Positions 193 through 36,020 of a stretch of 64,000 nt of DNA are shown piece after piece (the stretch's first letter is position 1; every line of letters begins with the position of its first letter). Origin of the DNA: an uncultured Candidatus Rokubacteria bacterium (lineage in GTDB: Bacteria > Methylomirabilota > Methylomirabilia > Rokubacteriales > CSP1-6); the NCBI GenBank assembly GCA_963827505.1, contig CAWHBD010000002.1:393692-457691 (forward strand), given 5' to 3'. A program made the translations under genes and the position numbers. A model generated the notes under the pieces. The model was not told where the DNA came from and did no database searches. It saw only the letters and a list, made by a program, of their open reading frames with translations.

Positions 193-1074
193 AGCCGCTC
201 CAGGAACGCGGCCAGGAACCGTGAGGTGTCGACACGGCGCGCGAAACGACAGTTGACCGGGCCGGCCGCCCGCCGCGTCTGCCCGTCGGGGGCGACCTCG
301 ATGCGCGTTTCCTCCCAGCCGACGAGGCTCGGATCGAGCGCGGCCGCCACCGCCAGCGGGTCGTGCAACACCATGCCCGAGGTTCCCGCATCGCCGGTGA
401 ACCCGCGCCGCGTGAAGGCGGCCACGCGGGTGGCCAGCGGGCCTGGGCAGCGGCCCAGCGCGCGCTCGAAGTCCTCGCGCGAGACGACGGCCTGGCGGGT
501 GGCGTCGAGCGGGACGAAGTCCACCGGCAGCGCCGCCGCGACCACGCGCGCGGCGGCCTCGGGATCGACGTGGATGTTGAACTCCGCGGTCGGCGTCACG
601 TTGCCGCGCACGTCGACGGCGCCGCCCATCACCACCACGCGGGCCAGCCGCCCCAGCGCCACCCGGTCACGCTCCAGTGCCAGGGCCACGTTGGTCAGCG
701 GCCCGAGCGCGATCAGGGTCAGGGGCTCGACCGCCTGCCGGGCCGTCTGCACGATCAGCTCGGCCGCGCTCTGGGGCACCAGCGTCCCCGCCGAGGGGGG
801 CCACTCCGGGAGGTCCCCCAGGCCGTCCTCGCCGTGGTACGCGGTCGCCGTCACCAGCGGGCGGCCCAGCGGCGCCGCCGCCCCCTCGGCGATGGGCGGC
901 GGCACGATGCCGGCGCAGCGCCACGAGGCGCAGCAGGTTGCGGGTGGCCGCGGCCACCGGCACGTTGCCAGCCACCGTGGTGAGGGCGGCCAGCCGCAGG
1001 TCCGGCGAGTTCCAGGCGTACAGCAGCGCCAGGGCGTCGTCGAGGCCCGGATCGGTGTCGATCAGGGCGAGCAT
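177..1074 (-). pseudogene. Inosine-uridine-preferring nucleoside hydrolase (IUNH family), disrupted by one frameshift near 905-935
   Basis: N-terminal frame (667..1098 ORF) reads MLALIDTDPGLDDALALLYAWNSPDLRLAALTTVAGNVP, the DTDPGxDD nucleoside hydrolase signature. C-terminal frame (177..905 ORF) reads LIALGPLTNVALALERD...VVVMGGAVDVRGNVTPTAEFNIHVDPEAA. The two halves are in different frames. Confidence 0.6.
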
Positions 1075-1145
1075 GGAATCGGGATGGCGCCCGGACACGT
1101 CATATACAATGACGTAACAATCCTGCCCGGGGGGAGGGACGAGTC

Positions 1146-1373
1146 ATGGACATCGAGATCCTGTATTGCGGGGAGTGAAACTACCTCCCCCAGGCCTCCA
1201 GTCTGCAGGCCTCCATCCAGAGCAAGTACGGCATGACGGCGCGCCTGAAGGAAGGCGTGGGCGGCATCTTCGAGGTGTACATCGACGGCCAGACCGCCTA
1301 CACCAACCAGGAGACGTACCGGTTCCCGACCGACGAGGAGATCTTCGCGAAGATCGACGCCGCTAAGAAGTAA
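1146..1373 (+). CDS. selW: SelW/Rdx-family selenoprotein (75 codons) with in-frame TGA (selenocysteine) at 1176-1178
   Basis: ATG at 1146 is preceded by GGGGAGGGA (RBS). Translation is MDIEILYCGE-U-NYLPQASSLQASIQSKYGMTARLKEGVGGIFEVYIDGQTAYTNQETYRFPTDEEIFAKIDAAKK, with stop TAA at 1371. The CxxU motif after a beta-strand and the GxFEV...G core match SelW/SelT/Rdx redox proteins. Reading through TGA keeps a single clean frame with GC3-rich codon usage. A hairpin AGGCCU(1192-1197)/AGGCCU(1207-1212) with a GU-containing loop starts 13 nt after the UGA (SECIS candidate). The ORF track misses this gene because of the TGA. Confidence 0.7.
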
Positions 1374-2636
1374 GCGCACGCTCGAGTTCCCCCTGGAAAC
1401 GCGGATGGGCCACGGTGAGCAACGCCGTGGCCCTCGCTGTGTCCGACAGCCCTCGCAGCCGCGCCGCCCCGTGCTCGGTCACGACCCAGTCGGCCAGGTA
1501 CCGAGGCGTGGTGACCGCCGCCCCCGCCGTCAGCCGCGGCACGATCCGCGAGACGGCGCCCTCCCGGCCCGTCGACGGCAGCGCGATCACCGACAGACCG
1601 CCGGCCGAGCGCGAGGCGCCCAGCACGAAGTCGAACTGCCCCCCGATCCCCGCCACCTGCCGCGGCCCCAGGCTCTCGGCGGTGACCTGTCCGGTCAGGT
1701 CCACCTCGAGCGCCGAGTTGATGGCGACGAACCGGTCGAGGCGCGCGATGACGTCGGGGTCGTGCGTGTAGGCCGCCGACTCCATGTTGACCGTGTCGCT
1801 GGCGCCGAGAAAGTCGAACGTGCGCCGCGTGCCCATGGCCTCGGCCAGGTCCATCCGCCCGCGATGCACGCGCTTGCGCGCGCCGGTCACGACGCCGCGC
1901 TCGACCAGGGCCACGCCATGGTCGACCAGCAGCGAGTGCAGGGCGAGGTCGCGGTGACCGGTCAAGCGCCTCGAGCACCGCCTGCGGAATGGCGCCCGAC
2001 GCCCACCTGGACGGCGGCGCCGTCCGGCACCAGGGCCGCCACGTGGGCGCCGATCGCGCGCTCGACCGCGCCCACCACCGGTGGCGGGTACTCCACCAGC
2101 GCGCTCGTCGACGTCCACGCGGATGTCGACCTGGCTGGCGTGCAGCCACGCATTGCCGCGGGTGCGCGGCATGCGCGGGATTGACCTGGGCGATGACGAG
2201 CGGGGCCAGCCGCGCCGCCGGCAGCGCCACGCCCACGCCGACGCCGAGGCTCAGGTAGCCGCGCGCGTCGGGCGGCGCGGTGTGCACCAGCACGCAGTCG
2301 GGCGGCCAGCGGCCGCCGGGCAGCGAACTCGGTCGCCACGTCGAAGTAGCGCACCGGCAGGAACTCGACGCGGCCGCGCCGGCGGGCGTCCTCCAGCCGG
2401 GGCGACATGTGCCAGGTGGCGTAGCGGAGCGCCGCACATTCCGGCCGGGCCCACGGATAGTCGCCGAGGTGGATCCCGCCCATGAGCGTGAGGTCGGGCA
2501 GCCGCTCGGACTGCCGGCAGATCTCGGCGACGAGCGCGCGCGGCTCCCCGCAGCCGGGCGGCAGCAGCACCCGCATGCCGGGCCGCAGCCGCTCGACGGC
2601 CTGCTTCGGCGTCATCGCGACGAACCCTCGCGCCAT
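1363..2636 (-). pseudogene. Acetyl-CoA hydrolase/transferase family protein (4-hydroxybutyrate CoA-transferase-like), about 5 frameshifts
   Basis: N-terminus MTPKQAVERLRPGMRVLLPPGCGEP...FLPVRYFDVATEF (frame of ORF 1962..2636). The following pieces DARGYLSLGVGVGVALPAARLAPLVIAQVNP, RMPRTRGNAWLHASQVD, YPPPVVGAVERAIGAHVAALVPDGAAVQVGVG, SGAIPQAVLEALD and GTRRTFDFLGASDTVNMESAAYTHDPDVIARLDRFVAINSALEVDLTGQVTAESLG are spread over three frames. Its 3' end overlaps the selW 3' end by 11 nt (convergent). Confidence 0.6.
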
Positions 2637-4065: not shown

Positions 4066-5549
<1,484 letters not shown>

Positions 5550-7394: not shown

Positions 7395-8576
7395 TTAGCG
7401 TTCGGGCTCCAGGCGGACGATGCGGCCGTTGGGCTCGTCGGTCAGCAGGTAGATGAGGCCGTCGGGGCCTTGGCGGACGTCGCGGATGCGGGCGTTGGGT
7501 GTCAGCGTGTAGCGTTCCTCGGCGGCGACGCGGCCGTTGAGAAGGCGCAGGCGGACGAGGCCGCGGCGCTGCAGTGAGGCGAGGAACAGGTCGCCGCGCC
7601 AGGCGGGGAAGCGGTCGGCCGTGTAGAACAGGGCGCCCGAGGGCGCGATGACGGGATCCCAGTAGTAGACGGGCTGCTCCATCCCCGGGCGCGAAGTGCC
7701 GACGCCGATGCGGGTGCCGGAGTAGTCGACGCCGTAGGTGATGATCGGCCAGCCGTAGTTGCGGCCGGCGCGCGGATTGTTCAGCTCGTCACCGCCACGG
7801 GCGCCGTGCTCGGCCGTCCACAGCTCGCCCCGCGCGTCCAGGGTGGCCCCCTGCACGTTGCGGTGCCCGTATGACCAGATCTCAGGGCGGGCGCCGTCGC
7901 GGCCGACGAACGGGTTGTCGCGGGGGGCCGAGCCATCGGGGTTGATGCGCACGATCTTGCCAATGGTCACCGCCAGGTCCTGGGCGGCGTCGCGCCGGGA
8001 CAATCGGTCGCCGAGCGTGACGAACAGCGTGCCGTCGGGGCGAAACACGAGCCGCGAGCCCCAGTGGAACTCGCTGGTGACCTTAGGCACCTGGCGCCAC
8101 ACCACCTCTGTTCCTTCCAGCCCGCGCTCGCCCAGCCGTCCTCGCGCCACCGCCGTGCCGGCCCCGCCCGCTCCCGGCTCCGAGAAGGACAGGTAGACGA
8201 GCCGATCCTGGGCAAAGCTCGGGCTCAGCGCCACGTCGAGCAGGCCTCCCTGGCCGCCAGTCGCGACCCCCGGCACACCGGCCAGCGGATCGGAAAGGCG
8301 GCCGCTCGGCGCGACGAGCCGCAAGCGCCCCGCCCGCTCGGTGACGAGCAGGCGGCCGTCGGGCAGAAACGCGAGCCCCCACGGATGCTCGAGGCCGCGC
8401 ACGACGTCGATGGCGCGCGCGGGCAGCCGCACCGGGATCGGCGTGGGCGAGCGCGTCGCCTCCTGGGCAAGGGCTGGAAGCCCGAGCAGCACGATGGCGA
8501 CGATCATGCCGAGCCAGAGCTTGCGCGTCGTCGTACATCCGGTCGAGCCGAGGCGGAGAGCCGCTGGTGATGGCAT
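7395..8576 (-). CDS. PQQ-dependent soluble sugar (glucose/sorbosone) dehydrogenase, beta-propeller, secreted
   Basis: MPSPAALRLGSTGCTTTRKLWLGMIVAIVLLGLPALAQEA (signal peptide), then LEHPWGLAFLPDGRLLVTERAGRLRLV, PLAGVP, GQGGLLDVALSP, IWSYGHRNVQG, YGWPIITYG, the hallmarks of the SGDH family. The ORF-track extension above 8576 has no support. Confidence 0.8.
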   Translation of the reverse strand: MPSPAALRLGSTGCTTTRKLWLGMIVAIVLLGLPALAQEATRSPTPIPVRLPARAIDVVRGLEHPWGLAFLPDGRLLVTERAGRLRLVAPSGRLSDPLAGVPGVATGGQGGLLDVALSPSFAQDRLVYLSFSEPGAGGAGTAVARGRLGERGLEGTEVVWRQVPKVTSEFHWGSRLVFRPDGTLFVTLGDRLSRRDAAQDLAVTIGKIVRINPDGSAPRDNPFVGRDGARPEIWSYGHRNVQGATLDARGELWTAEHGARGGDELNNPRAGRNYGWPIITYGVDYSGTRIGVGTSRPGMEQPVYYWDPVIAPSGALFYTADRFPAWRGDLFLASLQRRGLVRLRLLNGRVAAEERYTLTPNARIRDVRQGPDGLIYLLTDEPNGRIVRLEPER

Positions 8577-8636
8577 GGCGCAACTCCAGTCTACGATGGC
8601 GTCTGCTACAATCCACCCCGCCCCGGAGGTGCAGCG

Positions 8637-9884
8637 ATGCGCACCCTGCTTCGCAATGCGCGACTGATCGACGGCACCGGCCGCGCAGCCCAGGACGGCG
8701 CCGCGCTGCTGATCGAGGGCGACACGATCGTCCACGCCGGCCCGCTGGCCGGGGCCGATGCACCCGGTCCCGACGCCGCCGTCGCGCTCGATCTCGCCGG
8801 CCGCACCGTGATCCCCGGCCTGGTCGAGGCTCACCTGCACCTCTCCTACAACGACGTGAAGCAGATCGCCGACCTCGACCTGAACTGTCCGCCCGAGTAC
8901 TCCACGCTCCTGTCGGCGAAGAACGCGGAGCTGGTGCTGCACTGTGGCTACACGGCGGCCCGCTCGGCCGGCTCGGTTCACGCCGTCGACGTGGCGCTCA
9001 AGCGCGCCATCAACGAGGGGCTCTTCCCCGGCCCGCGACTGCTGGCGGCCGGCCGCGACATCTGCGCCACCGGCGGCATGGCCGACTGGAACCCGTCCTA
9101 TCTCAAGCTCGGCATGGAGGGCCTGGCGCTGATCGCCGATGGCCCCGAGCAGATCCGGGCAGCGGTGCGACGGGTCATCAAGGACGGCGCCGATGTGGTG
9201 AAGTGCTACGTCGGCGGCGACGCGCTGTTACCCCACACACCCATCGCCGACTGCACCTACACGCTGCCCGAGGTCCAGGCACTGGTCGACGAGGCCCACA
9301 TGCGCGGCCGGATGGTCGCCGCCCACGTGCGCGGCGAACGCTCGAGCGAGGTGGCCGCCCGGGCCGGCGTCGACTCGATCGAGCACGCGACCTACGCCAG
9401 CGACGACACGCTGAAGCAGATCCGCGACCAGGGGCTGACACTGGTGCCGGGGCTGCGCTATCTCTACTCGATCATCGAGAACGGGCCGCGCTTCGGCATC
9501 ACCGAGGCCGTCGTCCGCCCCAGCGGGCTGCACGACGAGATCAAGCAGGCCTCCGATACGTATCGACGCGCGCGCGAGCTGGGCATCCGGATGTGCCCGG
9601 GCGGTGATTTTGGCTTCGCCTGGAACCCCCACGGGGAGTACGCCAAGGACGTCCAGGTGTTCGTCGACGTCATCGGCTTCACGCCGCTGGAGGCGATCAC
9701 CTGCGCCACCCGCCACGGGGCCGAGTTGATGCGCATGCAGGACCGGATCGGCACCCTGACCCCCGGCAAGCTTGCCGACCTGGTCGTCGTCGACGGCGAT
9801 CCGCTGCAGGACATCGCCGTCCTCCAAGACCGGACCCGCCTGTCGGTCATGAAGGGCGGCCAGTGGGTGACCCGGAGGTTCTGA
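8637..9884 (+). CDS. Amidohydrolase-superfamily metal-dependent hydrolase (imidazolonepropionase / prolidase-like)
   Basis: Intact 415 aa. N-terminal LIDGTG...DTIV...GR.VIPGLVEAHLHL metal-binding motif. Diverges from the PQQ dehydrogenase gene. Confidence 0.8.
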   Translation: MRTLLRNARLIDGTGRAAQDGAALLIEGDTIVHAGPLAGADAPGPDAAVALDLAGRTVIPGLVEAHLHLSYNDVKQIADLDLNCPPEYSTLLSAKNAELVLHCGYTAARSAGSVHAVDVALKRAINEGLFPGPRLLAAGRDICATGGMADWNPSYLKLGMEGLALIADGPEQIRAAVRRVIKDGADVVKCYVGGDALLPHTPIADCTYTLPEVQALVDEAHMRGRMVAAHVRGERSSEVAARAGVDSIEHATYASDDTLKQIRDQGLTLVPGLRYLYSIIENGPRFGITEAVVRPSGLHDEIKQASDTYRRARELGIRMCPGGDFGFAWNPHGEYAKDVQVFVDVIGFTPLEAITCATRHGAELMRMQDRIGTLTPGKLADLVVVDGDPLQDIAVLQDRTRLSVMKGGQWVTRRF

Positions 9885-10169: not shown

Positions 10170-11017
10170 CCGCGGCTCACGGTTCGAGAAGCTCGGGACC
10201 GGCTTCCTCTTCACCGAGGGGCCGCTGTGGCACCCGACCGGAAAGTACCTGCTCTTCAGCGACATGCCCGGCGATCACCTGCGCCGGTGGTCGGCCCGGG
10301 ACGGCGTCACCACCTTCCGCAAGCCCTGCAACATGTCCAACGGGCTCACCTATGACCGCCAGGGGCGTCTGGTCGCCTGCGAGCACGCCTAGCAGCCAGG
10401 TGACCCGCACCGAGGCCGACGGCCGCATCGTGCCGCTCGCCACGCACTACCAGGGCCGGCAACTCAACAGCCCCAACGACATCGTGTGCCGATCCGACGG
10501 CGGCATCTACTTCAGCGATCCGCCCTACGGCCGGGCCAAGTTCTACGGGGTCGAGCGGCCCCAGGAGCTCGCCTTCCAGGGTGTCTTCCGGGTCGGCGCC
10601 GACCCCAAGTCGCCCACACTGCTCGTCGACGACTTCGAGCGTCCCAACGGGCTCTGCTTCTCGCTCGACGAGGCGCGCCTGTTCATCAACGACACCGCCC
10701 GCAAGCACATCCGCGTCTTCGACGTGGCCCCCGACGGCGGCGCTCCGCCGACGGCCGGCTCTGGGCCGAGACGAAGGGCGACGGGCCGGGCGCGCCCGAC
10801 GGCATGAAGCTCGACTCCGCCGGCAACGTGTACTGCTGCGGGCCGGGCGGCATCCACGTGTTCGACCCCGACGCGAACCTGCTCGGGGTGATCTGACGGT
10901 TCCCGAGTACACGGCGAACTTCGCGTGGGGCGACGACGATTATCGCTCGCTGTTCATCACCGCCTCGACGTCGCTGTACCGGGTGCGCGTACCGTCCCCG
11001 GCCTGCCGGCGTTCTGA
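10166..11017 (+). pseudogene. SMP-30/gluconolactonase/LRE-like (SGL) beta-propeller hydrolase, 3 or more frameshifts
   Basis: Fragments RFEKLGTGFLFTEGPLWHPTGKYLLFSDMPGDHLRRW...NGLTYDRQGRLVACEH (frame 1), GRQLNSPNDIVCRSDGGIYFSDPPYG...RPNGLCFSLDEARLFINDTARKHIRVFDVAPDGG (frame 2), ETKGDGPGAPDGMKLDSAGNVYCCGPGGIHVFDPDANLLGVI (frame 3), and VPEYTANFAWGDDDYRSLFITASTSLYRVRV plus ...PGLPAF-stop (TGA at 11015). Confidence 0.55.
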
Positions 11018-11044
11018 GCGCGCCGACTCGACAAGGAGGTCGTC

Positions 11045-12243
11045 ATGCAACGACGCACTGCTGCTGATCCTGCTCGCTCGCCCTGATCGCTGGCCGTGCC
11101 GATCGGCCGCCGACGCCCAGAAGCCGATCAAGGTCGGCATGCCCATGCTCGCTCTCCGGCCCGCGGCGCCCTCTTCGGCGAGCCCGCCTCCAAGGGCGCC
11201 AGATGTACGTCGAGGAGGTCAACGCCAAGGGCGGCGTGCTCGGCCGCAAGATCGAGCTCATCGTGCGCGACTCCAAGGCCGACGCCAACGAAGCGGTGCG
11301 CAGTGCGCGCGAGCTCATCCTGAAGGACAACGTCGACTTCCTGGTCGGTACGCTGACCTCCGCCGAGGGCCCGGCCGTCTCGGTGGTGGCCAAGGAGAAC
11401 AAGATCGTCTTCATCGCGCCGATCCCGAAGACCGACCAGCTCACCGCCCCCGACAAGCTGCACCCCTACGTGTTCCGCGTCGCCGCCAACACCACGATGG
11501 AGGGCCGCAGCGCCGCCGAGATCGTGGCCAAGTGGCCGGTCACGAAGGTCGCCACGATCGCCTTCGACTACGCCTACGGCCAGGACGTCACCAAGGCGTT
11601 CGTCGAGCACATCAAGAAGATCAAGCCGAGCGTGCAGATCGTGGACCAGCAGTGGCCCAAGCTCGGCGAGCAGGACTACAACGCCGTTCATCAACGCCCA
11701 GATGGCCAAGAAGCCGGAGGCCATCGTTTCGTCGCATCTGGGGCGGCTTCTTCGTCACCTACTCCAAGCAGGCCAAGGCGCTCGGCGTGTTCGACGCCGT
11801 GAAGTACAACTTCCTCGGCCTCGGGGAGGCGGCTACGCCGGAGACGACCAAGTCGATGGGCGCCGACTACCCGGTCGGCATCTGGGGCAACGCCTACGAC
11901 GCCTTCTACTGGGGCGAGACGCCAGGCCCACAAGGACTACACGGCGCGGCTGTCGAAGTACCTGAAGGACGAGTATCCGTCGTCGTGGGCCATCCAGGGC
12001 TACACCGGCATGCAGTTCCTGGTCGAGGCGATCAAGAAGGCCAACAGCACCGACTCCGACAAGGTGGCCAAGGCCCTGCTCGGCCTCACGGTCGAGACGC
12101 CGATCGGGCCGCAGACGATCCGGGAAAAGGACCACCAGGCGAACCGCGGCCAGCTCTACGGCAAGACCGCGATGGACCCCAAGTACCCGTTCGCGATCAT
12201 GAAGCCCGCCGTGTACGTCGATCCCACGAAGTTCATGGATTGA
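11045..12243 (+). pseudogene. livK: Branched-chain amino-acid ABC transporter substrate-binding protein (LivK/LivJ family), 8 or more frameshifts
   Basis: AAGGAGG RBS before the ATG at 11045. Signal peptide MQRRT(L)LLLILLA..., then PIKVGMPMLAL, MYVEEVNAKGGVLGRKIELIVRDSKADANEAVRSARELILKDNVDFLVGTLTSAEGPAVSVVAKENKIVFIAP, MAKKPEAIVSSHLG, FFVTYSKQAKALGVFDAVKYNFLGLGEAATPETTKSMGADYPVGIWGNAYDAFYWGETPG and KANSTDSDKVAKALLGLTVETPIGPQTIREKDHQANRGQLYGKTAMD...KPAVYVDPTKFMD-stop are spread over all three frames. Confidence 0.6.
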
Positions 12244-12349: not shown

Positions 12350-13239
12350 ATGCCCGATCCCTCGTTCGTCTTCGCGCAGTCGATCAGCGGCCTCACGGCG
12401 GCGATGTTCCTGTTCCTCATCGCCTCCGGGCTGTCGCTCATCTTCGGCGTGCTGCGCGTGCTCAACTTCGCGCACGGCACCTTCTACATGCTCGGCGCCT
12501 ACTCGGCTTTCCAGCTCGTGCAGTGGCTGGGCGTGGGCGGCGGCCGGTTCTGGCTGGCCGCGCTGGGCGCCGCCACTGCGGTGGCGCTGCTGGGCGGGAT
12601 CATCGAGCGGCTGCTGTTCCGCCACCTCTACGGCAAGGAGGAGCTCTACCAGCTACTGTTCACTTACGCGCTGGTGCTGATCCTGAGCGACGCCGCGAAG
12701 ATGATCTGGGGCACGCAGCAGAAGTCGGTGAGCCGGCCGCCCGGGCTCGACCGGCGCGCTTCTCGCTCTTCGGCGCCACCATCCCCTACTACAACCTGTT
12801 CATCCTGCTGCTGGGGCCGGCCATCGCGCTCGGCTTCTGGTTCGTGCTGCAGCGCACGCGGGTCGGGCCGCTTCATCCGCGCGGCGGCGCTCGACCGCGA
12901 GACGCTCGGCGCCCTCGGCGTCAACGTCGACGCGCTCTACACGGGCGTCTTCGTGATCGCCTCGTTCCTCGGCGGCCTCGGCGGCGCCCTCGTCACGCCC
13001 GATGCGCGACCATCGTGCCCGGCATGGACACCGAGATCATCGTCGAGGCCTTCGTGGTCGTGGTCATCGGCGGCCTCGGCTCGTTCTGGGGGACCTTCCT
13101 CGGCGCGCTCGTCTACGGCCAGGTGCTGTCGTTCGGCATCCTGTTCTTCCCGCGCTTCTCGATCTTCTCGGTCTTCGCCCTCATGGCCGGCGTGCTCATC
13201 ATCCGGCCGTGGGGCCTGCTGGGCCGCCCGCTCAAGTGA
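12350..13239 (+). pseudogene. livH: Branched-chain amino-acid ABC transporter permease LivH, about 3 frameshifts
   Basis: N-terminus MPDPSFVFAQSISGLTAAMFLFLIASGLSLIFGVLRVLNFAHGTFYMLGAYSAF is intact. Then FSLFGATIPYYNLFILLLGPAIALGFWFVLQRTRVG and IVPGMDTEIIVEAFVVVVIGGLGSFWGTFLGALVYGQ...GLLGRPLK-stop fall in another frame. Confidence 0.55.
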
Positions 13240-17372: not shown

Positions 17373-19628
17373 CTACGTCGGGCGGGGGGTGAAGGTCTTC
17401 ACTGAGATGTACTGGTCGGGCCAGGGGAGGTCGAGGCCCTGGTCGCGGGCGGCGTGGCGGGTCCAGTAGGGGTCGTAGAGGTGGGCACGGGCCAGGACGC
17501 AGAGGTCGGCGCGGCCGGCGGCGATGATCGAGTTGACGTCGGCGCTGGAGGCGACGCCGCCGACGGTCATGGTCGGAATGCCGGCCTCGTGGCGGATCCG
17601 GTCGCTGAACGGCGTCTGGAACAGGCGGCCGTGATCGGGCGCCTGATCGGGCACCGTGTTGCCGGCCGACACGTCGACGATGTCACAGCCGTGGGTGCGT
17701 AGCGCGCGCGCCACCTCGACGGCATCCCTCGGCGACAGGCCGCCCTCCTTCCAGTCGGTGGCCGAGAGCCGGACCGAGATGGGCTTGGCGACAGGCCATG
17801 CCGCCCGGACGGCGTCGAAGACCTCGAGCGGGAAGCGCAGGCGGTTGGCGAGCGCGCCGCCGTAGGCATCGGCACGCCGGTTGGTGAGCGGCGACAGGAA
17901 CGACGCCAGCAGGTAGCCGTGGGCGATGTGGAGCTCGAGCAGGTCGAAGCCGGCCTCCTCGGCCATGCGGGTGGCTCGCACGAAGTCGTCGCGCACGGCG
18001 TCCATGTCCCCGCGGTCCATCTCGCGCGGGACCTGGCTGTGCGGGAAGTACGGGATCGGCGACGCCGAGATCAGCGGCCAGTTGCCCTCGGGCAAGGGCT
18101 CGTCGATGCCCTCCCACAGCCGGCGCGTGGAGCCCTTGCGCCCGGCGTGGGCGAGCTGGATGCCGATCCGGGCCGGGCTGGCGCCGTGCACGAAGTCGAC
18201 GATGCGCTTCCACGCGGCCACGTGCTCGGGCTTGTACAGGCCGGTGCAGCCAGGGCTGATGCGCCCGTCGCGGCTGACGTCGGTCATCTCCGTCATCACC
18301 AGCCCCGCCCCGCCGACCGCGCGACTGCCCAGATGCACCAGGTGCCAGTCGCCCGGCGTGCCGTCCTCGGCCGAGTACTGGCACATCGGCGAGACGACGA
18401 CGCGGTTGGACAGCACCAGTCCTCGGAGCCGGAACGGCGTGAACATCGGCGGCGGGAGCGGGGCCGCGGGCACCGTCACGCCGCTCTGCTGCGCAGCCTT
18501 CTCGGCGAGCCAGCCGTCGACCGTGGCCACGAGCTTGGCGTCGCGGGCCTTCAGGCTGTCGTGCGTCACCCGCAGGCTGCGCGTGAGCAGGCTGTAGGCG
18601 AGCTGGGCGGGCTCCAGGCGGCCGTGGTACCGCTCGGTGTGCTCGAACCACTCCAGGCTGCGCTGGGCCGCGCGCTGCAGCGCCTCGACCTGGGGCCGGC
18701 GCTCCGCCTCGTAGGCCGGCAGTGCCCGCCGCACCTCGTCGTGGGCCTGCAGGCTGCGGCTGAGAGCGATGGCGTCCTCCATCGCGAGCTTGGTGCCGGA
18801 GCCGATCGAGAAGTGCGCGGTGTGGGCGGCGTCGCCGACGAGGACGATGTTGTCGTGGTACCAGGCGTCGTTGCGGATGACCGGGAAGGCCCGCCACAGC
18901 GAGCGATTGTTCAAGATCGGATGGCCCTCCAGCTCGCGCGCGAACAGCGCCTGCGCGAACGCCACCGTGTCGTCCTCGCGGGCCTCGTCCAGGCCGGCCC
19001 GCCGCCAGGTGTCCTCCGTGCACTCGAGGATGAACGTCGAGTGGTGGCGGTCGTAGCTGTAGGCGTGCACGCGCCACAGCCCGTGCTCGTCCTCCTTGAA
19101 CATGAAGGTGAAGGCCCGGAACGGGAACGTCGTGCCGAGCCAGACGAACCGGTTGCGGCGCCAGTCGATGCGCGGCCGGAAGTGACGGGCATGGCGCTGG
19201 CGCACCCAGGAGTTCACCCCGTCGGCGGCCAGCACGAGGTCGGCCCCCGCCCACGCCTCCGGCCGATCGACCTCCGTGGAAAAGCGGAGGACCACACCCA
19301 GGTCGGTGGCCCGGGCCTGGAGGATGTCGAGCAGCCGCTGGCGGGAGAGGCCGGCGAAGCCGTGGCCGGTCGAGGTCAACACCTGCCCCCGGTAGTGGAT
19401 ATCGATGTCGTCCCAGTGGGCGAAGGCTCGGGTGATGGCGGCGTGCGTCTCAGGGTCGGCCTCGCGGAAGTTGTCGAGGGTGGCATCGGAGAAGACCACG
19501 CCGAAGCCGAAGGTGTCGTCGGAGCGATTGCGCTCGAGGACGATCACCTCGTGGGCCGGATCGGCCCTCTTCATCAAGATCGCGAGGTACAGGCCGGCCG
19601 GCCCGCCGCCGATCGAGACGATCTTCAC
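17373..19628 (-). CDS. Bifunctional FAD-dependent aromatic monooxygenase / Old Yellow Enzyme oxidoreductase (salicylyl-CoA 5-hydroxylase-like), 751 aa
   Basis: Intact. N-terminus [19 protein letters not shown] (GxGxxG FAD fold)...[27 protein letters not shown] (flavoprotein hydroxylase). C-terminal ~350 aa OYE domain: [42 protein letters not shown]...[12 protein letters not shown]...[26 protein letters not shown]. The domain order matches the gentisate-pathway salicylyl-CoA 5-hydroxylase type. Confidence 0.75.
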
Positions 19629-19644
19629 GCCTTCGATTGTACGA

Positions 19645-20898
19645 TCAGGTGGCCGCCTTGGTCGAACGCGTCATCCGTCGCCATCGCCACCTCGCGCGGG
19701 CCACGAAGAATCGCCACGCCATCTCCAGCCGGTGCCGGCGCAGGCTCGCCTCGCCCAGCGCCACCAGCGCGAAGAGCCGGCACAGCCGGGCGTCGAGCGC
19801 GGCGGCACGGATGATCGCATCGGCCAGGGACGGATTGGCGAACAGCCGGCGCTGGATGCGCACGGAGTCGGCGAGCTCGTCGCCGATCTCCTCGCGCCAG
19901 CGCCTCTCGTAGGCCGCCAGCCGGGCGGCCGAGCCGTCGCCGGCCTGCACGGCGTCGGCCGCCACCTCGCCGGCGTGGCGGCCCGTCACCATCGCGTGGT
20001 AGATCCCCTCGCCCGTGTAGGCGTTGACGAAGCCGCCGGCGTCGCCGCAGACGAGGACACGCTCGGCGTAGGTCCGGGCCAGCGGCCCCCCCAGCGGCAG
20101 CCGGTACGCCTTGAAGTTGGCGGGATTGGAGCGGCCGCGCACGATGCCGCGGGCGGCGACCTCGTCGAGAAACCGCGCGTGGTGCGCGTAGGGCGGCCCG
20201 GTCAGCGTCTGCTTGAAGAACGGCAGCAGGAAGCCGACGCCGAAGTCGACGCAATCCCGCTTGGGGAACACGTAGCCGTACCCGGGCCAGCCCTTGTAAC
20301 CGTAGGCCACGTACATCGTGTCGGGGGCGGCCATCGACAGCTCGGCCAGCGGCGTCTCCTCCATCGTGTCGATGGCCAGCGTCTCCTCGGCAAAGCCCGT
20401 CGTGAGCCCGGCCGCCCGCGCCACCACGCTGTTGACCCCGTCGGCGCCGATCACGAGCCGGGCGGTCAGCGCGCGGCCGTCGACGCAGTGAACCACGACG
20501 CCGTCGGCGCCGGGCTCGATCCCCGTCACCCGTGCGCGCTCCAGGACCCGGGCGCCCTCGGCGCGGGCCCGGGCCAGCAGGGCGGCGTCGAGCTCGGTGC
20601 GGCGCAGCGTGAGGTAGAACGGCGCATCGCCGGAGGCCGTCACGGCATGGCCGGCCGGCGACTCCATCAGCACGCGGTGGATCTCGTGGATGGCCACCGT
20701 CGAGCGCAGGTGCTCGGCGAGATCGGGGAAGCGCCGGTAGACCCCGTAGCGAATGCCACCGCCGCACGGCTTGTCGCGCGGAAAGGGCTTCTTGTCGAGG
20801 ACGAGGACGTCGACGCCGCGCCGGGCCAGGGCCAGCGCGGCGAGCGACCCGGCCGGACCACCGCCGACCACGATCACCGCCGCGTCCACGTCTCGCAT
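19645..20898 (-). CDS. Geranylgeranyl-reductase-family FAD-dependent oxidoreductase
   Basis: Start [49 protein letters not shown] (GGR family signature), ...[19 protein letters not shown]. 417 aa, intact. The ORF-track N-terminal extension to 21114 is antisense to lhr. Confidence 0.75.
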
Positions 20899-20937
20899 CG
20901 GGACAGCGTACTCCACACGCCGGGTACAATGGTCGGG

Positions 20938-23900
20938 ATGCCGGAGTTCCTCCCCTTCGTCCGCCGCTGGTTCACCGAGACGTTCGCCGACGCGACCCGC
21001 CCGCAGCGCGAGGGCTGGGAGGCCATCGCCTCCGGCCGCGACACGCTCATCGTGGCGCCGACTGGCTCCGGCAAGACGCTGGCCGCCTTCCTGTGGGCGC
21101 TCGACCACCTGCACCGGCTCGGCCTGGAGCGACGCCTCGAGGACCGCGTGTACGTGGTCTACGTCTCACCGCTGCGCGCGCTCAACAACGACATCGAGAA
21201 GAACCTGCGCGAGCCGCTGGCCGGCCTCCGCGCCGCGGCGGCCGCCGACGGCCTCGACCTGCCCGAGGTCCGAGTGGCCGTGCGCACCGGCGACACGCTG
21301 GCCGCCGCCCGCCAGGCCATGACGCGCCGCCCGCCGCACGTACTCATCACCACGCCGGAGTCGCTGTACATCCTGCTCACGACCCAGGGTTTCCGGCCGG
21401 CGCTGGCTCAGGCGCGGTTCGTGATCGTGGACGAGGTCCACGCGCTGATGGCCAGCAAGCGCGGGGCCCACCTGGCCCTCTCGCTGGAGCGGCTGCAGGC
21501 GCTGGTGGAGGGCGACGGGACCGCTGCCCGCCCCCAGCGGATCGGCCTGTCGGCCACGGTGCGACCGGTAGAAGACGCGCTGGCCTTCCTCACCGGCGCT
21601 ACCGCCCGTGACCCCGTGCTGATCGACACCGGCTTCTCGCGCGACCTCGACGTGCAGGTCGTCTCGCCGGTCGACGACTTCCTCACCACGACCAGCGACA
21701 CGGTCTGGGACGCCGCCCTGCAGCAGATCGCCGAACTGGTCCAGGCGCATCGCACGACGCTGGTCTTCGCCCAGAGCCGGCGCGCGGCCGAGCGCCTGGC
21801 CCGCGATCTCAACGACCGGGTCACCGACGGTCGAGTGGCCGCCCACCACGGCTCGCTCTCGCGTCGGGCCCGGCTGGACGCCGAGAACCGCCTGAAGGCC
21901 GGCGAGCTACGCGCGCTGGTCGCCACCTCCTCGCTGGAGCTCGGCATCGACGTGGGCGCCATCGACCTCGTCGTGCAGGTGCAGTCGCCGCGCAACGTCG
22001 CCGCCGCCCTGCAGCGCGTGGGCCGGGCCGGCCACCTGCTCTCCCGCACCTCCAAGGGCCGCATCCTGGTGACGAAAGGCGAGGAGCTGATGGAGGCGGC
22101 TGCGGTCGTGCGGGCGATCCGCGAGCGCTCGCTCGACCGCATCGCGATGCCCGAGGCCCCGCTCGACGTCCTCGCCCAGCAGATCGTGGCGGCGGTGGCC
22201 GCCGAGTCGCTCGACGTCGACACCCTGCACCGGCGCTTCATCAACGCCGCCCCGTACCGCGCGCTCTCCCGCGCGACCTTCGTGGAGGTCGTCCGGGCGG
22301 TGGCGGAGCCGCTGCCGCTGGAGGTCAAGGGGATCGCGCCCCGCATCCTCTGGGACCGCGTCAACGATCGGCTCCACGCCCGCCGAGGCACCCGCTTCCT
22401 GGCGCTGACCGCCGGCGGCACCATTCCCGACGCCGGGCTGCTCGACGTCTACGTGACCGAGACGGACCTCAAGGTCGGCACCCTCGACGAGGAGTTCGTC
22501 ACCGAGAGCCTGCCCGGCGACGTGTTCCTGCTCGGCTCCCACGCCTGGAAGATCGCCAAGGTCAAGGCCGGCCGCGTCCTGGTCGAGGACGCCCAGGGCA
22601 TGGCGCCGACCATTCCGTTCTGGAAGGGCGAGCACCCCTCCCGCTCGTTCGATCTCGGGGTGGCGGTCGGTCGCCTGCGCCGAGACGCCGCCGACAAGCT
22701 CGACGACCCCGACTTCGACGCGTGGGCGACCGCCGAGGCCGGTCTCGACAGCCGTGCCGTGCGCGCGATGCATGCCTGGCTGGTCAAGGCCGGCGAGGTG
22801 CTGCAGGGCGTGCCCGACGACCAGGGCATCGTCGTGGAGTCGTTCTCCGACGAGATGGGCGGCCGGCACGCCATGATCCACTCCGTCTTCGGCATGCGGG
22901 TCAATGGCGCCTGGGGCATGGCCCTGCGCGAGCAGGTCCGCCGGCGCTTCGGCCTGCTCGTCGAGGCCAGCCACGTCGACGACGGCATCCTGCTGTCCTT
23001 CGCGCCCGGCCAGGTGCCGCCCGCCCCCGAGCGGCTCGTCACCCTGGTGGGGCCCGACGAGCTCGACCCGCTGCTCGGCGAGGCACTCATCGGCTCGCCG
23101 ATGTTCGCCACCCGCTTCCGCCATGCGGCCGTGCGCGCGCTGTTCATCCCGCGCATGACGCGCGGCCAGCGCACGCCCGCCTACCTGCAACGGCTGAAGG
23201 CCGACGCGCTGCTGGAGTCCGTGCGCGGCCAGCCCGATTTCCCGGTGGTGGCCGAGACGCTGCGCGAGTGCTTCCACGACGCCTACGACGTCCCCCGCCT
23301 CAAGCGCCTGCTCGAGCGGCTGCAGGACGGCGAGCTGTGGACGCGCCACGTCGACACCCCGCTGCCCTCGCCCTTCGTCTACCCGCTGCTGATGGCCTGG
23401 GACTGGGCCTACCTGGACGCCGGCCACGCCGAGGAGCGGCGCAGCGACACGATCGTGATGCGCAAGGCGTGGAGCGTGGCGCCGGGACCGATGCGCGCCG
23501 ACATCGTCGCCGCCGTCGAGGCCGAGCTGCAGAAGACGACACCCGAGCGCCGGGCCCGCGACGCCAACGAGCTGGCTGCGATCCTGGACGACCTCGGCGA
23601 CCTCACGCGCGCAGAGATCGCCGAGCGCGTGCTGGGGGAGGCTGACGCGCTGATCGCGGCCCTGGTGGCCGAGCGGCGGATCGTCGAGGTCGAGTTCGGC
23701 GGCGGGCGGTGTACGTGGATCCCGGCCACCGACGCCACGCTCTACGCCGGCCTGGCGACCGAGGCCGGGCTGGAGCGTCTCACCTTGCGGGTGCTGCGCA
23801 CCCGGGGCCCGATGTCGGCCGACGCACTGGCCGCCCGCTACGGCCTCGTCGCCGCCGAGGTCACCCCCGCGCTCGATCGCCTCGTCCTGCGCGGCGTGGT

Positions 23901-25275
23901 GCGCGAGGGCACGTTCGTCGAGGGCGTCGAGGGTCGACAGTACGTGCACGTTGCCGTGCTGGACGAGATCCAGCGGCGCCAGGTCCACGCCCGACGCATC
24001 CCGCGGCCGGTGGTCACCGCCGAGCAGTTCTCGGCCTTCCTGCTGCGTCGCCATCACCTGCACCCCGAGCAGCGCCTGGTCGGTCCTCCCGGCGTCCTCG
24101 CCGCCCTCGAGCTGCTGCAGGGCGAGGACTTCGCGGCCCGCGTGTGGGAGCAGGACCTGCTACCCGCGCGGATCGACGGCTACCAGCGCGAGTGGCTCGA
24201 CCGGCTCGGCCTCTCGGGCGAGATCGTGTGGACGGTGTTCGAGCCGGGGGGCGGCGATCGCGGCCGCTCGGGCCGCGTGGGAGCCGCGCTGCGGGAGAAC
24301 GTCGGCTGGCTGCGCGAGAGCACCGAGCGGCCGCCGCTGGAGCCCGCCGTGAAGAACGTCCTGCTCCACCTGCAGCTGCGCGGTGCCTCGTTCGCCCGCG
24401 ACCTGGGTCGAGCCACGGGCCTCGACGGCCCCCAGGTCCTCGACGCCCTGTGGGCCCTGTTCCGGGCAGGCCTGGCCACTCCCGACACCTTCAGCGCGAT
24501 CGTCGCCGCGAGCACGGCACCACGTGCGATCGACACGCGGGGCCCCGCCCGTCGGCGTCCTCGCCGCGGCCAGGCCCGTGGCCCGCTCGTCCACCTGCCG
24601 CCGGTCGGCCGCTGGAGTGCGCTGGCCGAGGAGGAACCGCTGTCACCCGAGGATCGCGACGAGGCCTGGGCCCACCTCCTCCTGGCCCGCTACGGCGTGG
24701 TGGCGCGCGAGCTGGCGCGTGGCGACTGGGCCACGCTGCGCCACGTGCTGCTGCGCATGGAGTACGGCGGCGAGGTCGTACGGGGCTACTTCGTCGAGGG
24801 GCTCTCCGGCGAGCAGTACGCGCTCGAGGACGCGCTGGCCGCGCTGACGGCGCCGGCCACCCGCCGGGCCGAGCCACACGTCCTCACGAACATCGTCGAC
24901 CCCGCCAACCTGTGGGGCCGGGTGTGGCCGTTGTCGCGCCGCGACGGCTCGCGGCTGAGCGTGGCGCGGCTGGCTCATGCCTGGCTCGTGCTGCGGGCCG
25001 GGCGGCCCGTGCTGCTGGCCGAGAACTACGGCCGCGAGCTGACCCCGCTCGGCGGCTTCGAGCCGGTCGACCTGCCGGGGACCGTGCGCGCGCTGCAGGC
25101 GATGCTTGATCGCCCGCTCACGCTGCGCCCGGTCCGCCGGCTGGAGATTCTCATCTGGGACGGCCGGCCCGTTCGCGACAGCGAAGCCTTCTCGGCCTTC
25201 GCGGAGGCCGGCTTCAGCGCCGACGGCGCGCGCCTCAGCTGGGACGGCTACCCGGGTCCTCGACTACCGCGTTGA
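20938..25275 (+). CDS. lhr: Lhr-family large ATP-dependent DEAD/DEAH-box helicase (1445 aa)
   Basis: MPEFLPFVRRWFTETFADATRPQREGWEAIASGRDTLIVAPTGSGKTLAAF (Walker A), VIVDEVHAL (DExH), GLSATV, HHGSLSRRARLDAENRLKAGELRALVATSSLELGIDVG, QRVGRAGH (motif VI). The long C-terminal Lhr-specific domains are intact. The upstream part of the 1956-aa ORF in the track (19405-20937) is antisense to the GGR gene and I rejected it. Confidence 0.85.
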   Translation: MPEFLPFVRRWFTETFADATRPQREGWEAIASGRDTLIVAPTGSGKTLAAFLWALDHLHRLGLERRLEDRVYVVYVSPLRALNNDIEKNLREPLAGLRAAAAADGLDLPEVRVAVRTGDTLAAARQAMTRRPPHVLITTPESLYILLTTQGFRPALAQARFVIVDEVHALMASKRGAHLALSLERLQALVEGDGTAARPQRIGLSATVRPVEDALAFLTGATARDPVLIDTGFSRDLDVQVVSPVDDFLTTTSDTVWDAALQQIAELVQAHRTTLVFAQSRRAAERLARDLNDRVTDGRVAAHHGSLSRRARLDAENRLKAGELRALVATSSLELGIDVGAIDLVVQVQSPRNVAAALQRVGRAGHLLSRTSKGRILVTKGEELMEAAAVVRAIRERSLDRIAMPEAPLDVLAQQIVAAVAAESLDVDTLHRRFINAAPYRALSRATFVEVVRAVAEPLPLEVKGIAPRILWDRVNDRLHARRGTRFLALTAGGTIPDAGLLDVYVTETDLKVGTLDEEFVTESLPGDVFLLGSHAWKIAKVKAGRVLVEDAQGMAPTIPFWKGEHPSRSFDLGVAVGRLRRDAADKLDDPDFDAWATAEAGLDSRAVRAMHAWLVKAGEVLQGVPDDQGIVVESFSDEMGGRHAMIHSVFGMRVNGAWGMALREQVRRRFGLLVEASHVDDGILLSFAPGQVPPAPERLVTLVGPDELDPLLGEALIGSPMFATRFRHAAVRALFIPRMTRGQRTPAYLQRLKADALLESVRGQPDFPVVAETLRECFHDAYDVPRLKRLLERLQDGELWTRHVDTPLPSPFVYPLLMAWDWAYLDAGHAEERRSDTIVMRKAWSVAPGPMRADIVAAVEAELQKTTPERRARDANELAAILDDLGDLTRAEIAERVLGEADALIAALVAERRIVEVEFGGGRCTWIPATDATLYAGLATEAGLERLTLRVLRTRGPMSADALAARYGLVAAEVTPALDRLVLRGVVREGTFVEGVEGRQYVHVAVLDEIQRRQVHARRIPRPVVTAEQFSAFLLRRHHLHPEQRLVGPPGVLAALELLQGEDFAARVWEQDLLPARIDGYQREWLDRLGLSGEIVWTVFEPGGGDRGRSGRVGAALRENVGWLRESTERPPLEPAVKNVLLHLQLRGASFARDLGRATGLDGPQVLDALWALFRAGLATPDTFSAIVAASTAPRAIDTRGPARRRPRRGQARGPLVHLPPVGRWSALAEEEPLSPEDRDEAWAHLLLARYGVVARELARGDWATLRHVLLRMEYGGEVVRGYFVEGLSGEQYALEDALAALTAPATRRAEPHVLTNIVDPANLWGRVWPLSRRDGSRLSVARLAHAWLVLRAGRPVLLAENYGRELTPLGGFEPVDLPGTVRALQAMLDRPLTLRPVRRLEILIWDGRPVRDSEAFSAFAEAGFSADGARLSWDGYPGPRLPR

Positions 25276-34675: not shown

Positions 34676-36020
34676 CTAGGCGGCGGGCGAGACCGCTCCC
34701 ACCAGCCAGCGTGCGGTGCGCAGGAGACGCGCATCGCCGTGGCGAGGCCCGACGAGCTGGACACCGAGCGGCAGGCCGTTAGCGCCGCGCATGATGGGCA
34801 CGCTGATGGCGGGCATCCCGGCGAGCGTCCACAGCGCGCAGAAGGCCGGATCGCCGGTCGAGTCGAGTCCCGCCGGCGCCGTGCCGGGGGCGGCCGGGGT
34901 CAGGATGGCGTCGTAACGCTGCTCGAACAGCTCCGTGAAGCTCGCCTGCAGCTCGGGGATGCGGGCCAGCGCGCGCAGGTAGTGGGGGGCGCGCACCTCG
35001 TGGCCGCGCTCGATGCTGGCCCGCAGCGAGTTCGACAGCCCCGCCCGTCCGGTCCGCCATTCCCGGTCGAGGTTCACCGCCAGCTCGGCGTTCATGATGG
35101 TGCGATGCCACTCGGCCGTCTCCGCGGCCGGCCTCACCAGCTCCACCTCCTCTAGGCGATCGCCGAGCACGGCGGCCAGCTCCTCGAAGGCCTCGCGGGC
35201 GTCGGGGTCGACCGCGTCCCACATCGTCGTCTTCACGAAAGCGAACATCGGCGGCAGCGGGGGCTCCTCGCCAGCGAGCTGCCGGTAGGGCACACGCGCG
35301 CGTGGCCGGGTGTCGGGATCACGCTCGTCGTGGCCGGCCAGCTGCTCCAGTAAGCAGAGCGAGATCGTCGATGGAGCGCGCGAACAGCCCCACGTGATCC
35401 AGCGTGCGCGAGAGCTGGAACATGCCGTGGCGCGGAATCAGCCCGTGGGTCGGCTTGAGGCCGTACACGCCGCAGTAGGAGGCGGGCCGGATGGTGGAGC
35501 CGCCGGTCTGGCTGCCGAGCGCCAGCGGGACCATGCCCGCCGCCACCGCCGCCGCCGAGCCGCTCGACGATCCACCCGGCGTGTGGGCCGGGTCGTGCGG
35601 GTTGCGCGTCTTGCCCGGCTGTCGCGTCGCGAACTCCGTGGTCACCGTCTTGCCCAGGATGACCGCGCCCGCCCCCCGCAGCATCGCCGTCACGCTCGCG
35701 TCCCGGGAAGGCGTCCGGCCGGCGTGCAGCACCGAGCCGTTCTCGGTCGGCATGTCGGCGGTGTCGATGATGTCCTTCAAGGCCACCGGCACGCCGTGCA
35801 GCGGCCCGATCACTCGGCCCGACATCCGCGCCTCGTCCGCCGCCCTCGCCTGCCCCAGCGCCAGCTCCGGGTCCAGGAAGGTCCACGCCTCGACGTCCCG
35901 ATCGACGGCCCGGATGCGCGCCAGGCACGCCTCGACCAGCTGCTCCGAGCTGATCACCCCATCCCGAATCAGCCGCGCCCCCTCCCCCGCCGACACCGCA
36001 TACAGATCCGTCAAATCCAT
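34676..36020 (-). pseudogene. Amidase (amidase-signature family, GatA-like), single frameshift near 35325-35345
   Basis: N-terminal 233 aa intact, including the GGSSSGSAAAVAAG signature and VPVALKDII. The C-terminal 200 aa sit in the other frame (…GLPLGVQLVGPRHGDARLL). A 1-nt indel at ...IDDLALL|LEQLAGHDERDP. Confidence 0.6.

Follow-up and report, generated by a model that had tools for sequence, protein, structure and literature searches.

Positions 1146–1373 on the forward strand of the window (the whole 64-kb stretch of DNA that was analysed) are best explained as a functional and monocistronic gene, by which a Methylomirabilota/Rokubacteria bacterium encodes a SelW-like selenoprotein of 75 residues and in which an in-frame UGA is read as selenocysteine (Sec) at residue 11; the probability that we attach to this reading is about 0.93. 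An earlier note on this DNA had proposed a SelW/Rdx-type selenoprotein with a candidate SECIS hairpin. The comparison with related genomes supports that overall reading, through the presence of TGA at the same codon in 80 of 80 related species, a hairpin that is frozen in sequence and a match to the Rdx profile.

According to the mechanism proposed here, ribosomes would bind at the GGAGG, initiate translation at ATG 1146 and not terminate at UGA 1176–1178. As in the established bacterial pathway, the hairpin at 1193–1211, with its G-U triloop located 22 nt past the UGA, would recruit SelB.GTP.Sec-tRNA(Sec) while the ribosome draws near, and selenocysteine would be delivered at the UGA as residue 11. 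The product would be a minimal thioredoxin-like protein carrying Cys8-x-x-Sec11 between strand beta1 and helix alpha1. These two residues presumably cycle between selenol/thiol and selenenylsulfide forms, the protein thereby acting as a thiol-dependent oxidoreductase.

Reading frame, fold and conservation of the UGA codon

Translation from ATG 1146 to the true stop TAA at 1371–1373 reads MDIEILYCGE-TGA-NYLPQASSLQASIQSKYGMTARLKEGVGGIFEVYIDGQTAYTNQETYRFPTDEEIFAKIDAAKK, i.e. 75 residues with Sec as residue 11, the TGA at 1176–1178 being the sole internal stop. A Shine-Dalgarno sequence GGAGG (1133–1137) lies 8 nt upstream from the ATG, and the 40 codons located 3' of the TGA display a GC3 of 0.95, in a window whose G+C content is 71.5%. 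The 75-codon frame across a decoded TGA, the strong ribosome-binding site and the richness in GC3 that had been put forward in the earlier note are all found by direct reading. A consensus scan of positions 1000–1500 detected neither a sigma-70 promoter nor an intrinsic terminator near the gene. When the window was scanned twice by GC3 for additional selenoprotein genes, nothing came out except the SelW gene and junctions between genes.

For the comparison with profiles, the TGA codon was translated as Cys. The protein scores 55.8 bits with the Pfam family Rdx (PF10262; cut-off 22.6), residues 3–71 of 75 being covered, and 48.7 bits with TIGR02174 (CXXU_selWTH; cut-off 34.2). Both scores exceed the curated cut-offs, which establishes the homology of the peptide flanking the TGA to Rdx proteins. 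With the equivalog NF041051 (SelTWH_Campy), it reaches 72.8 bits, below the cut-off of 88; judged by these scores, it is related to this Campylobacter equivalog but is not a member of it. Among PDB sequences, it matches best two bacterial Rdx proteins of the Cys type, 3dex and 2fa8; MIEN1 and mouse SelW come next.

The putative redox motif Cys8-Gly-Glu-Sec11 (CxxU; 1167–1178) is found at the end of strand beta1. In the alignments, YCGE-U faces the YCTQC of 3dex and 2fa8, so that the UGA corresponds to the second redox Cys of their CxxC motif, as it also does in 2ljk. This is the Sec site of the CxxU motif of SelW/SelT/SelH proteins, where the TGA had been claimed to lie.

The fold was examined on an AlphaFold2 model built for P0001, an 85%-identical homologue with W at the Sec site, and not for the protein of the window itself. 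This model (mean pLDDT 93.5) displays the thioredoxin-like order beta1(3–8)-alpha1(14–28)-beta2-beta3-beta4-alpha2. In a Foldseek search, its top PDB matches are all SelW-related (2fa8, 2ojl, 2p0g, 3dex and 2obk; TM 0.82–0.90, rmsd 1.4–2.5 Å), with TM 0.87–0.90 and rmsd 1.4–1.5 Å for 2fa8, 2ojl, 2p0g and 3dex. MIEN1, SelW and thioredoxins rank below these bacterial crystal structures. The alignment and the Foldseek superposition therefore locate the CxxU pair at the redox centre of the family. Taken together, profiles and model indicate that 1146–1373 encodes a 75-residue protein that is a member of the Rdx/SelW family by sequence and by predicted fold.

Relatives were obtained by scanning one genome per GTDB species, which led to 80 loci, nearly all from metagenome-assembled genomes (MAGs) of Methylomirabilota/Rokubacteria. 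These loci were fetched with the peptide pattern PQASSLQA and, with the window, make up the 81 sequences considered below. Codon 11 is TGA in all 80 species representatives (81/81 aligned sequences with the window); the identity of their proteins to that of the window ranges from 63 to 93%. To the question of whether homologues carry Cys or Sec at this position, the answer at species level is thus TGA in 80 orthologues out of 80.

The frame is kept across the relatives, with a length of 74–78 codons and an ATG start in 80 of the 81 sequences, and a purine-rich, GGAGG-like motif precedes the ATG at an equal distance in the 19 relatives (19/19) that were aligned there. The ten codons located 5' of the TGA evolve like coding sequence: in codons 7, 8 and 9, variation is almost confined to the third position. 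To judge by these substitution patterns, the UGA is conserved together with coding sequence on both of its sides. The orthologue group appears in essentially every Methylomirabilota/Rokubacteria genome sampled.

TGA was also found in five of six additional metagenome contigs, the exception being a 637-bp contig (L083) that carries TTA (Leu) at the site. A database entry presented as 'full-length', the JGI gene call P0001, shows W at this position, but the underlying contig has TGA. An ascertainment bias due to the pattern PQASSLQA was considered and dismissed, since loci that were found through the similarity of their proteins beyond the hairpin have this TGA and this hairpin as well. Indeed, the four loci fetched through stub proteins (L085–L088) all carry the ATG, the ten codons, the TGA and the same hairpin and block.

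The hairpin downstream of the UGA codon

The sequence footprint of the candidate SECIS element is an invariant 21-nt block, CAGGCCUCCAGUYUGCAGGCC (1191–1211, codons 16–22), that begins 13 nt 3' of the UGA and was delimited by third-position entropy. The core of the hairpin (1193–1211, 19 nt) consists of a 5-bp stem extending from G1193-C1211 to U1197-A1207, a C1198.C1206 mismatch, the pairs C1199-G1205 and A1200-U1204, and an apical triloop GUC (1201–1203), which is GUU in 64 of the 81 sequences. The same hairpin is obtained from the RNAalifold consensus of 33 diverse sequences and from single-sequence folding. It is the minimum-free-energy (MFE) fold, with -8.7 kcal/mol alone and -9.3 kcal/mol in the context of the UGA and the following 38 nt.

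The earlier note had described a stem AGGCCU (1192–1197)/AGGCCU (1207–1212), starting 13 nt past the UGA and closing a GU-containing 9-nt loop, CCAGUCUGC. This hairpin is indeed present in the window and is the MFE fold, but its conserved stem comprises only 5 bp; the outer pair A1192-U1212 is restricted to 10 of the 81 sequences, those in which codon 23 is UCC. Likewise, the GU is present in the loop, but the nine nucleotides are better read as the C.C mismatch, the two additional pairs and the GUC triloop.

The published model of bacterial SECIS elements (bSECIS) specifies an apical loop of 3–9 nt and an upper stem of 4–16 bp (PMC13188914). It also places a G within the first two loop positions, mostly as N1-G-[G/U]-N-N2 with N1 and N2 paired, and requires a distance of 16–37 nt from the UGA to the loop and an MFE of at most -7.5 kcal/mol (PMC13188914). 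In the window, the loop is GUC on a stem of 5+2 bp, the loop G occurs in the arrangement A-GUC-U, the loop lies 22 nt from the UGA, and both MFE values (-8.7 and -9.3 kcal/mol) are below the published limit. Folding of the region that follows the UGA thus recovers a hairpin that agrees with the four elements of the model, and the SECIS-like position that had been attributed to it falls within the published range.

Other foldings were considered. A hairpin GGGGAG/CUCCCC that encloses the UGA in a 71-nt fold and the lower-stem pairs seen in a 52-nt fold have their arms on variable third positions, and both are dropped by RNAalifold. No lower stem reaching back to the UGA is supported by RNAalifold among the 33 sequences.

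Taken as a single sequence, the hairpin does not fold better than expected by chance (z = -1.1 to -1.5, with 16–27 of 200 shuffled sequences folding equally well; over all the folds examined, z goes down to about -2.0). It is therefore the comparative conservation, and not the thermodynamics of one sequence, that sets it beyond chance. Third-position entropy amounts to 0–0.1 bit within the block, whereas the four-fold sites in the rest of the gene reach 1.1–1.5 bits (Mann-Whitney p = 0.0012). Ser19 is encoded by AGU in all 81 sequences although this codon accounts for 2.3% of the Ser codons in the genes of the window, and Leu20 by UUG in 64 of the 81 although UUG accounts for 2.2% of the Leu codons. 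Codons 13–15, the spacer that separates the hairpin from the UGA, are free to vary at their third positions. Across at least 80 species, the element is fixed at every nucleotide but one despite protein identities of 63–93%. The 19-nt element occurs exactly once, and at the same place, in 79 of the 80 loci, and the window and about 1.1 Mb of related flanks contain no further exact copy.

Since the element is invariant, none of its pairs displays compensatory covariation (0/10 in RNAalifold). The single variant, locus L009, has lost the bottom pair, while a change of C1206 to G closes the mismatch, leading to a perfect 7-bp stem (-12.1 kcal/mol); such a change is what a constraint on RNA structure predicts. 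On this comparative evidence, the hairpin is under RNA-level selection that goes beyond the requirements of the protein, and it fits the bSECIS model.

Proposed decoding of the UGA codon and alternative readings

No tRNA at all was detected by ARAGORN in the 64-kb window, nor any tRNA-Sec in the flanks of the 80 related loci (about 1.1 Mb), and, with the gathering thresholds of Rfam, the whole window gave zero matches, tRNA-Sec included. The SelA, SelB and SelD proteins of E. coli, compared by tblastn with the window and the 80 loci, gave nothing at E ≤ 1e-3. The 7 kb located beyond the start of the window, as given by a near-identical contig, are also devoid of sel genes. These local searches show that the sel genes are not adjacent to the SelW gene and do not imply that they are absent from the genome.

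As for the phylum, 63 selenoprotein genes are predicted in one MAG of Methylomirabilota (PMC13188914, citing Deng et al. 2026), and Methylomirabilota also have group 4 [NiFeSe] hydrogenases of the Sec type (PMC13582414). A search of the literature on selenocysteine in Rokubacteria or Methylomirabilis retrieved nothing specific to the SelW gene. From the literature on the phylum, we infer that selA, selB, selC and selD are carried elsewhere in the genome.

It could be argued that the UGA is read through without Sec, whether because it has been reassigned to Trp or Gly or because it is decoded by near-cognate or Cys insertion, and that the hairpin merely slows termination. This would agree with the JGI call P0001, which translates the codon as W, and with the lack of Sec machinery within the window and the related flanks. 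However, the contig from which P0001 derives simply has TGA, and TGA is the main stop codon of the window, where it ends 15 of the 20 long coding-type ORFs; since TGA is a normal stop here, the genetic code is standard and a reassigned code is excluded. Furthermore, it is at this codon that a classic selenoprotein family carries its Sec, the hairpin, G-U loop included, agrees with the model of SelB-type SECIS elements (PMC13188914), and the use of Sec in the phylum is documented (PMC13188914, PMC13582414). Readthrough without Sec is therefore very unlikely.

The public annotation corresponds to another reading, in which translation does end at the UGA, the gene proper is a stub extending from ATG 1233 to 1373 (46 aa), and the first ten codons are a leader peptide or are non-coding. 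The stop-to-stop listing of ORFs yields only this 46-aa tail, and gene callers choose such stubs, with 46 aa on a 98%-identical contig (L090/L091) and about 42–64 aa, starting after the TGA, in relatives. The truncation that the earlier note had expected from standard annotation is thus what public data contain. Moreover, the 46-aa stub alone still matches Rdx, with 27.7 bits. Nevertheless, the relatives do not share any start codon beyond the UGA: most of them have Ile or Leu in place of Met30, and the starts chosen by the callers differ among relatives (codons 14, 20 and 34). The stub would also be deprived of strand beta1 and of the CxxU motif, both of which are part of the fold, whereas the ATG, the Shine-Dalgarno sequence and the ten upstream codons are kept as coding sequence in 80 genomes. 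Termination at the UGA can hence be regarded as extremely improbable compared with its decoding as Sec.

The 21-nt block could also be maintained for a reason unrelated to Sec: it might attenuate translation, be targeted by an sRNA or act as a palindrome for DNA binding, and Sec would then be inserted through another, unrecognised signal. The zero covariation is compatible with this, GGCCT-N9-AGGCC is also a palindrome at the DNA level, and such a degree of invariance is unusual for a SECIS. However, the position, size, loop sequence and spacing of the element all match the bSECIS model, the block is found exactly downstream of a conserved in-frame UGA, and the exact element is absent elsewhere from the window and from about 1.1 Mb of related flanks. 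In addition, the changes in L009 preserve the pairing of the RNA rather than the sequence. This alternative to a role of the hairpin in Sec insertion therefore deserves hardly any credence.

The SelW gene lies alone between two genes carried by the opposite strand, an arrangement that is conserved across the clade. The upstream neighbour, which is divergent, encodes an inosine-uridine nucleoside hydrolase and is preceded by a PfkB kinase gene. The downstream one, which is convergent, encodes an acetyl-CoA hydrolase/transferase, and its 3' end overlaps that of the SelW gene by 11 nt. Both neighbours are frameshifted in the window but intact on the ENA contig ERZ25039547:contig_14354, which is 98.2% identical to the window over 4.7 kb and 100% identical in the SelW gene.

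The extra bases of the window (at 912, 1968, 1994, 2103, 2174 and 2321) are the exact sites of the frameshifts, and the ENA contig has, in turn, extra bases where the gene of the window is intact. As each of the two near-identical contigs is intact where the other is shifted, these indels look like assembly errors, probably consensus errors of long-read assemblies. The density of indels is about 10 events, of 1 nt each, in 35 kb, with none inside the SelW gene. At such a density a 228-nt gene usually escapes, and its intactness therefore carries no message. Hence, the significance that had been given to an intact gene between frameshift-riddled neighbours does not survive the comparison with the 98.2%-identical contig, from which the frameshifts are absent.

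An error of sequencing or assembly at the TGA itself (such as a TGC misread as TGA), or a pseudogene with a nonsense mutation, is the least credible explanation of all and is already refuted by the relatives and by the 98%-identical contig. Many 1-nt indels do separate the window from that contig, but the errors in the neighbour genes are 1-nt indels, none of them inside the SelW gene. All of the 80 other species share this TGA, as does the contig, in which the gene is 100% identical, and the frame is intact and under purifying selection.

Relation to known SelW-like systems and consequences for annotation

Bacterial SelW-like selenoproteins and SECIS elements located in coding regions have been known for about twenty years. 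Conceptually, nothing is new here: the SelW gene of the window joins the known family of bacterial SelW-like selenoproteins. It shares with the other members the Pfam/TIGRFAM family, the N-terminal CxxU and the small single domain, as well as the Sec encoded by UGA and a hairpin immediately downstream, within the coding region, with a G in a small apical loop. This family, first catalogued in surveys of prokaryotic selenoproteomes, ranked first in abundance among the selenoprotein families of the Sargasso Sea data (PMC1088965), and SelW-like is listed as a high-confidence prokaryotic selenoprotein family (PMC13188914). The orthologue group to which the SelW gene belongs differs from other bacterial SelW-like selenoproteins in that it is Methylomirabilota/Rokubacteria-wide, all the retrieved genes being of the Sec form except for the one TTA contig. 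It also differs by a SECIS that is very compact (19 nt) and sequence-invariant across the clade, and by its misannotation in public data.

The Cys-type Rdx proteins Atu0228 (2fa8), BpR68 (2ojl), the SelW-related protein of V. cholerae (2p0g), SAV_2001 (3dex) and that of P. fluorescens (2obk) display the same fold (TM 0.82–0.90), with a redox motif at the same place, YC-x-x-C being aligned to the YCGEU of the window. They differ from the window protein by a CxxC, which does not need any recoding element, in place of the CxxU. Their identity to the window protein amounts to 19–27%, and they comprise about 100–108 residues, with extra terminal segments, versus 75. Mammalian SelW (2npb; CxxU) and MIEN1/C17orf37 (2ljk; CxxC) also share the Rdx fold, the motif after beta1 and a presumed thiol-dependent redox role; for 2npb, the sequence match to the window protein is weak (E = 0.19) and the TM is 0.65. 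Furthermore, eukaryotic SelW depends on a SECIS located in the 3'-UTR, with SBP2/eEFSec, whereas in bacteria a hairpin in the coding region is read by SelB (PMC13188914).

As regards the SECIS itself, the hairpin of E. coli fdhF is likewise located just 3' of the UGA inside the ORF, and its apex CA-GGUC-UG, re-derived from the MG1655 record, resembles the CA-GUC-UG of the window. In the fdhF SECIS, the G23 and U24 of the loop tip are contacted by SelB. The G and U of the window triloop, which are the presumed SelB contact, are nucleotides 26 and 27 when the U of the UGA is numbered 1, versus 23 and 24 in fdhF. Compared with fdhF, the loop of the window is one nucleotide shorter (a triloop), an internal C.C mismatch takes the place of the bulged U, and there is no extended lower stem pairing back towards the UGA.

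The frozen 19–21-nt element may define a distinct, minimal and sequence-specific class of SECIS, read by a strict SelB of Methylomirabilota, or may carry a second function, such as a selenium-responsive regulation. Such a proposal is speculative and rather unlikely; if true, it would explain the lack of drift even at the loop and mismatch positions.

The main value of the finding is practical. Public protein sets hold almost only N-terminally truncated stubs of this protein, without the catalytic CxxU; once corrected, the annotation gives back the full-length selenoprotein and identifies these bacteria of soil and groundwater as users of selenium. The invariant 19-nt hairpin also provides a ready probe and a compact candidate SECIS for the study of SelB specificity in an uncultured, selenoprotein-rich phylum.

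Genes broken by single-nucleotide indels and other features

Several genes of the window are broken by 1-nt indels. Two of them adjoin the SelW gene, both on the minus strand (177-1137, the nucleoside hydrolase gene, and 1363-2642, the acetyl-CoA hydrolase/transferase gene), and the others lie at 7401-8845 (minus strand), 10897-12240 and 12350-13236 (both plus strand) and 34700-35624 (minus strand). None of the six indel sites found around the SelW gene (912, 1968, 1994, 2103, 2174 and 2321) is present in a public contig 98.2% identical to the window (ENA ERZ25039547 contig_14354), where the equivalents of both adjoining genes are intact. This contig carries indels of its own elsewhere, at the equivalents of window positions 4524, 4746 and 5026. 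The 1-nt indels of the window are most likely long-read consensus errors and the genes would not be pseudogenes.

The window also harbours a very large intact ORF (20947-25260, plus strand, inside the stop-to-stop ORF 19396-25275), which shares 62% identity over more than 1,400 aligned aa with a 1,620-aa ORF of L041, one of the SelW loci from GTDB species representatives. At another of these loci, L001, ARAGORN called a tRNA-Ala (CGC) at 10429-10504 (minus strand), within an intact acetyl-CoA hydrolase ORF; this call is probably a false positive.

SelW loci in public MAGs and in a short metagenomic contig

Eight SelW loci (L010, L049, L056, L060, L061, L068, L069 and L073) are Rokubacteria-like in sequence and synteny but lie in public MAGs with the labels Acidoferrum, Binatia, Nitrosocosmicus, Dormiibacterota, Nitrosotalea or Verrucomicrobiia. 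Their contigs were probably mis-binned.

A single contig, L083 (637 bp, metagenomic, ENA ERZ27276474 k141_5862998), has TTA (Leu) at 412-414 instead of the TGA for Sec; the hairpin 3' of this codon is intact and the rest of the gene normal. The TTA stems either from a read error or from a mutation that recently inactivated the gene. The sole 'full-length' non-Sec database protein, P0002, derives from this contig.

Intergenic repeat and terminator codon of the SelW gene

The divergent region of about 70 nt that separates the nucleoside hydrolase gene from the SelW gene includes a perfect inverted repeat (1097-1115, ACGTCAT-N5-ATGACGT, centre TATACAAT), whose core, CGTCATATACAAT, is kept in the closest relatives. 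Remoter relatives carry a canonical TTGACA-N17/18-TATCAT at the equivalent site, and a consensus promoter scan of window positions 1000-1500 gave no match. The repeat may serve as a promoter -10 element, as an operator or in both roles.

Of the 81 sequences (the window and L001-L080), 50 have TAG, 12 have TAA and only 19 have TGA as the true stop codon of the SelW gene (1371-1373 in the window), whereas TGA terminates 15 of 20 ordinary long ORFs of the window. This low share of TGA may be due to chance, or a Sec-decoding mRNA may avoid having a second UGA.
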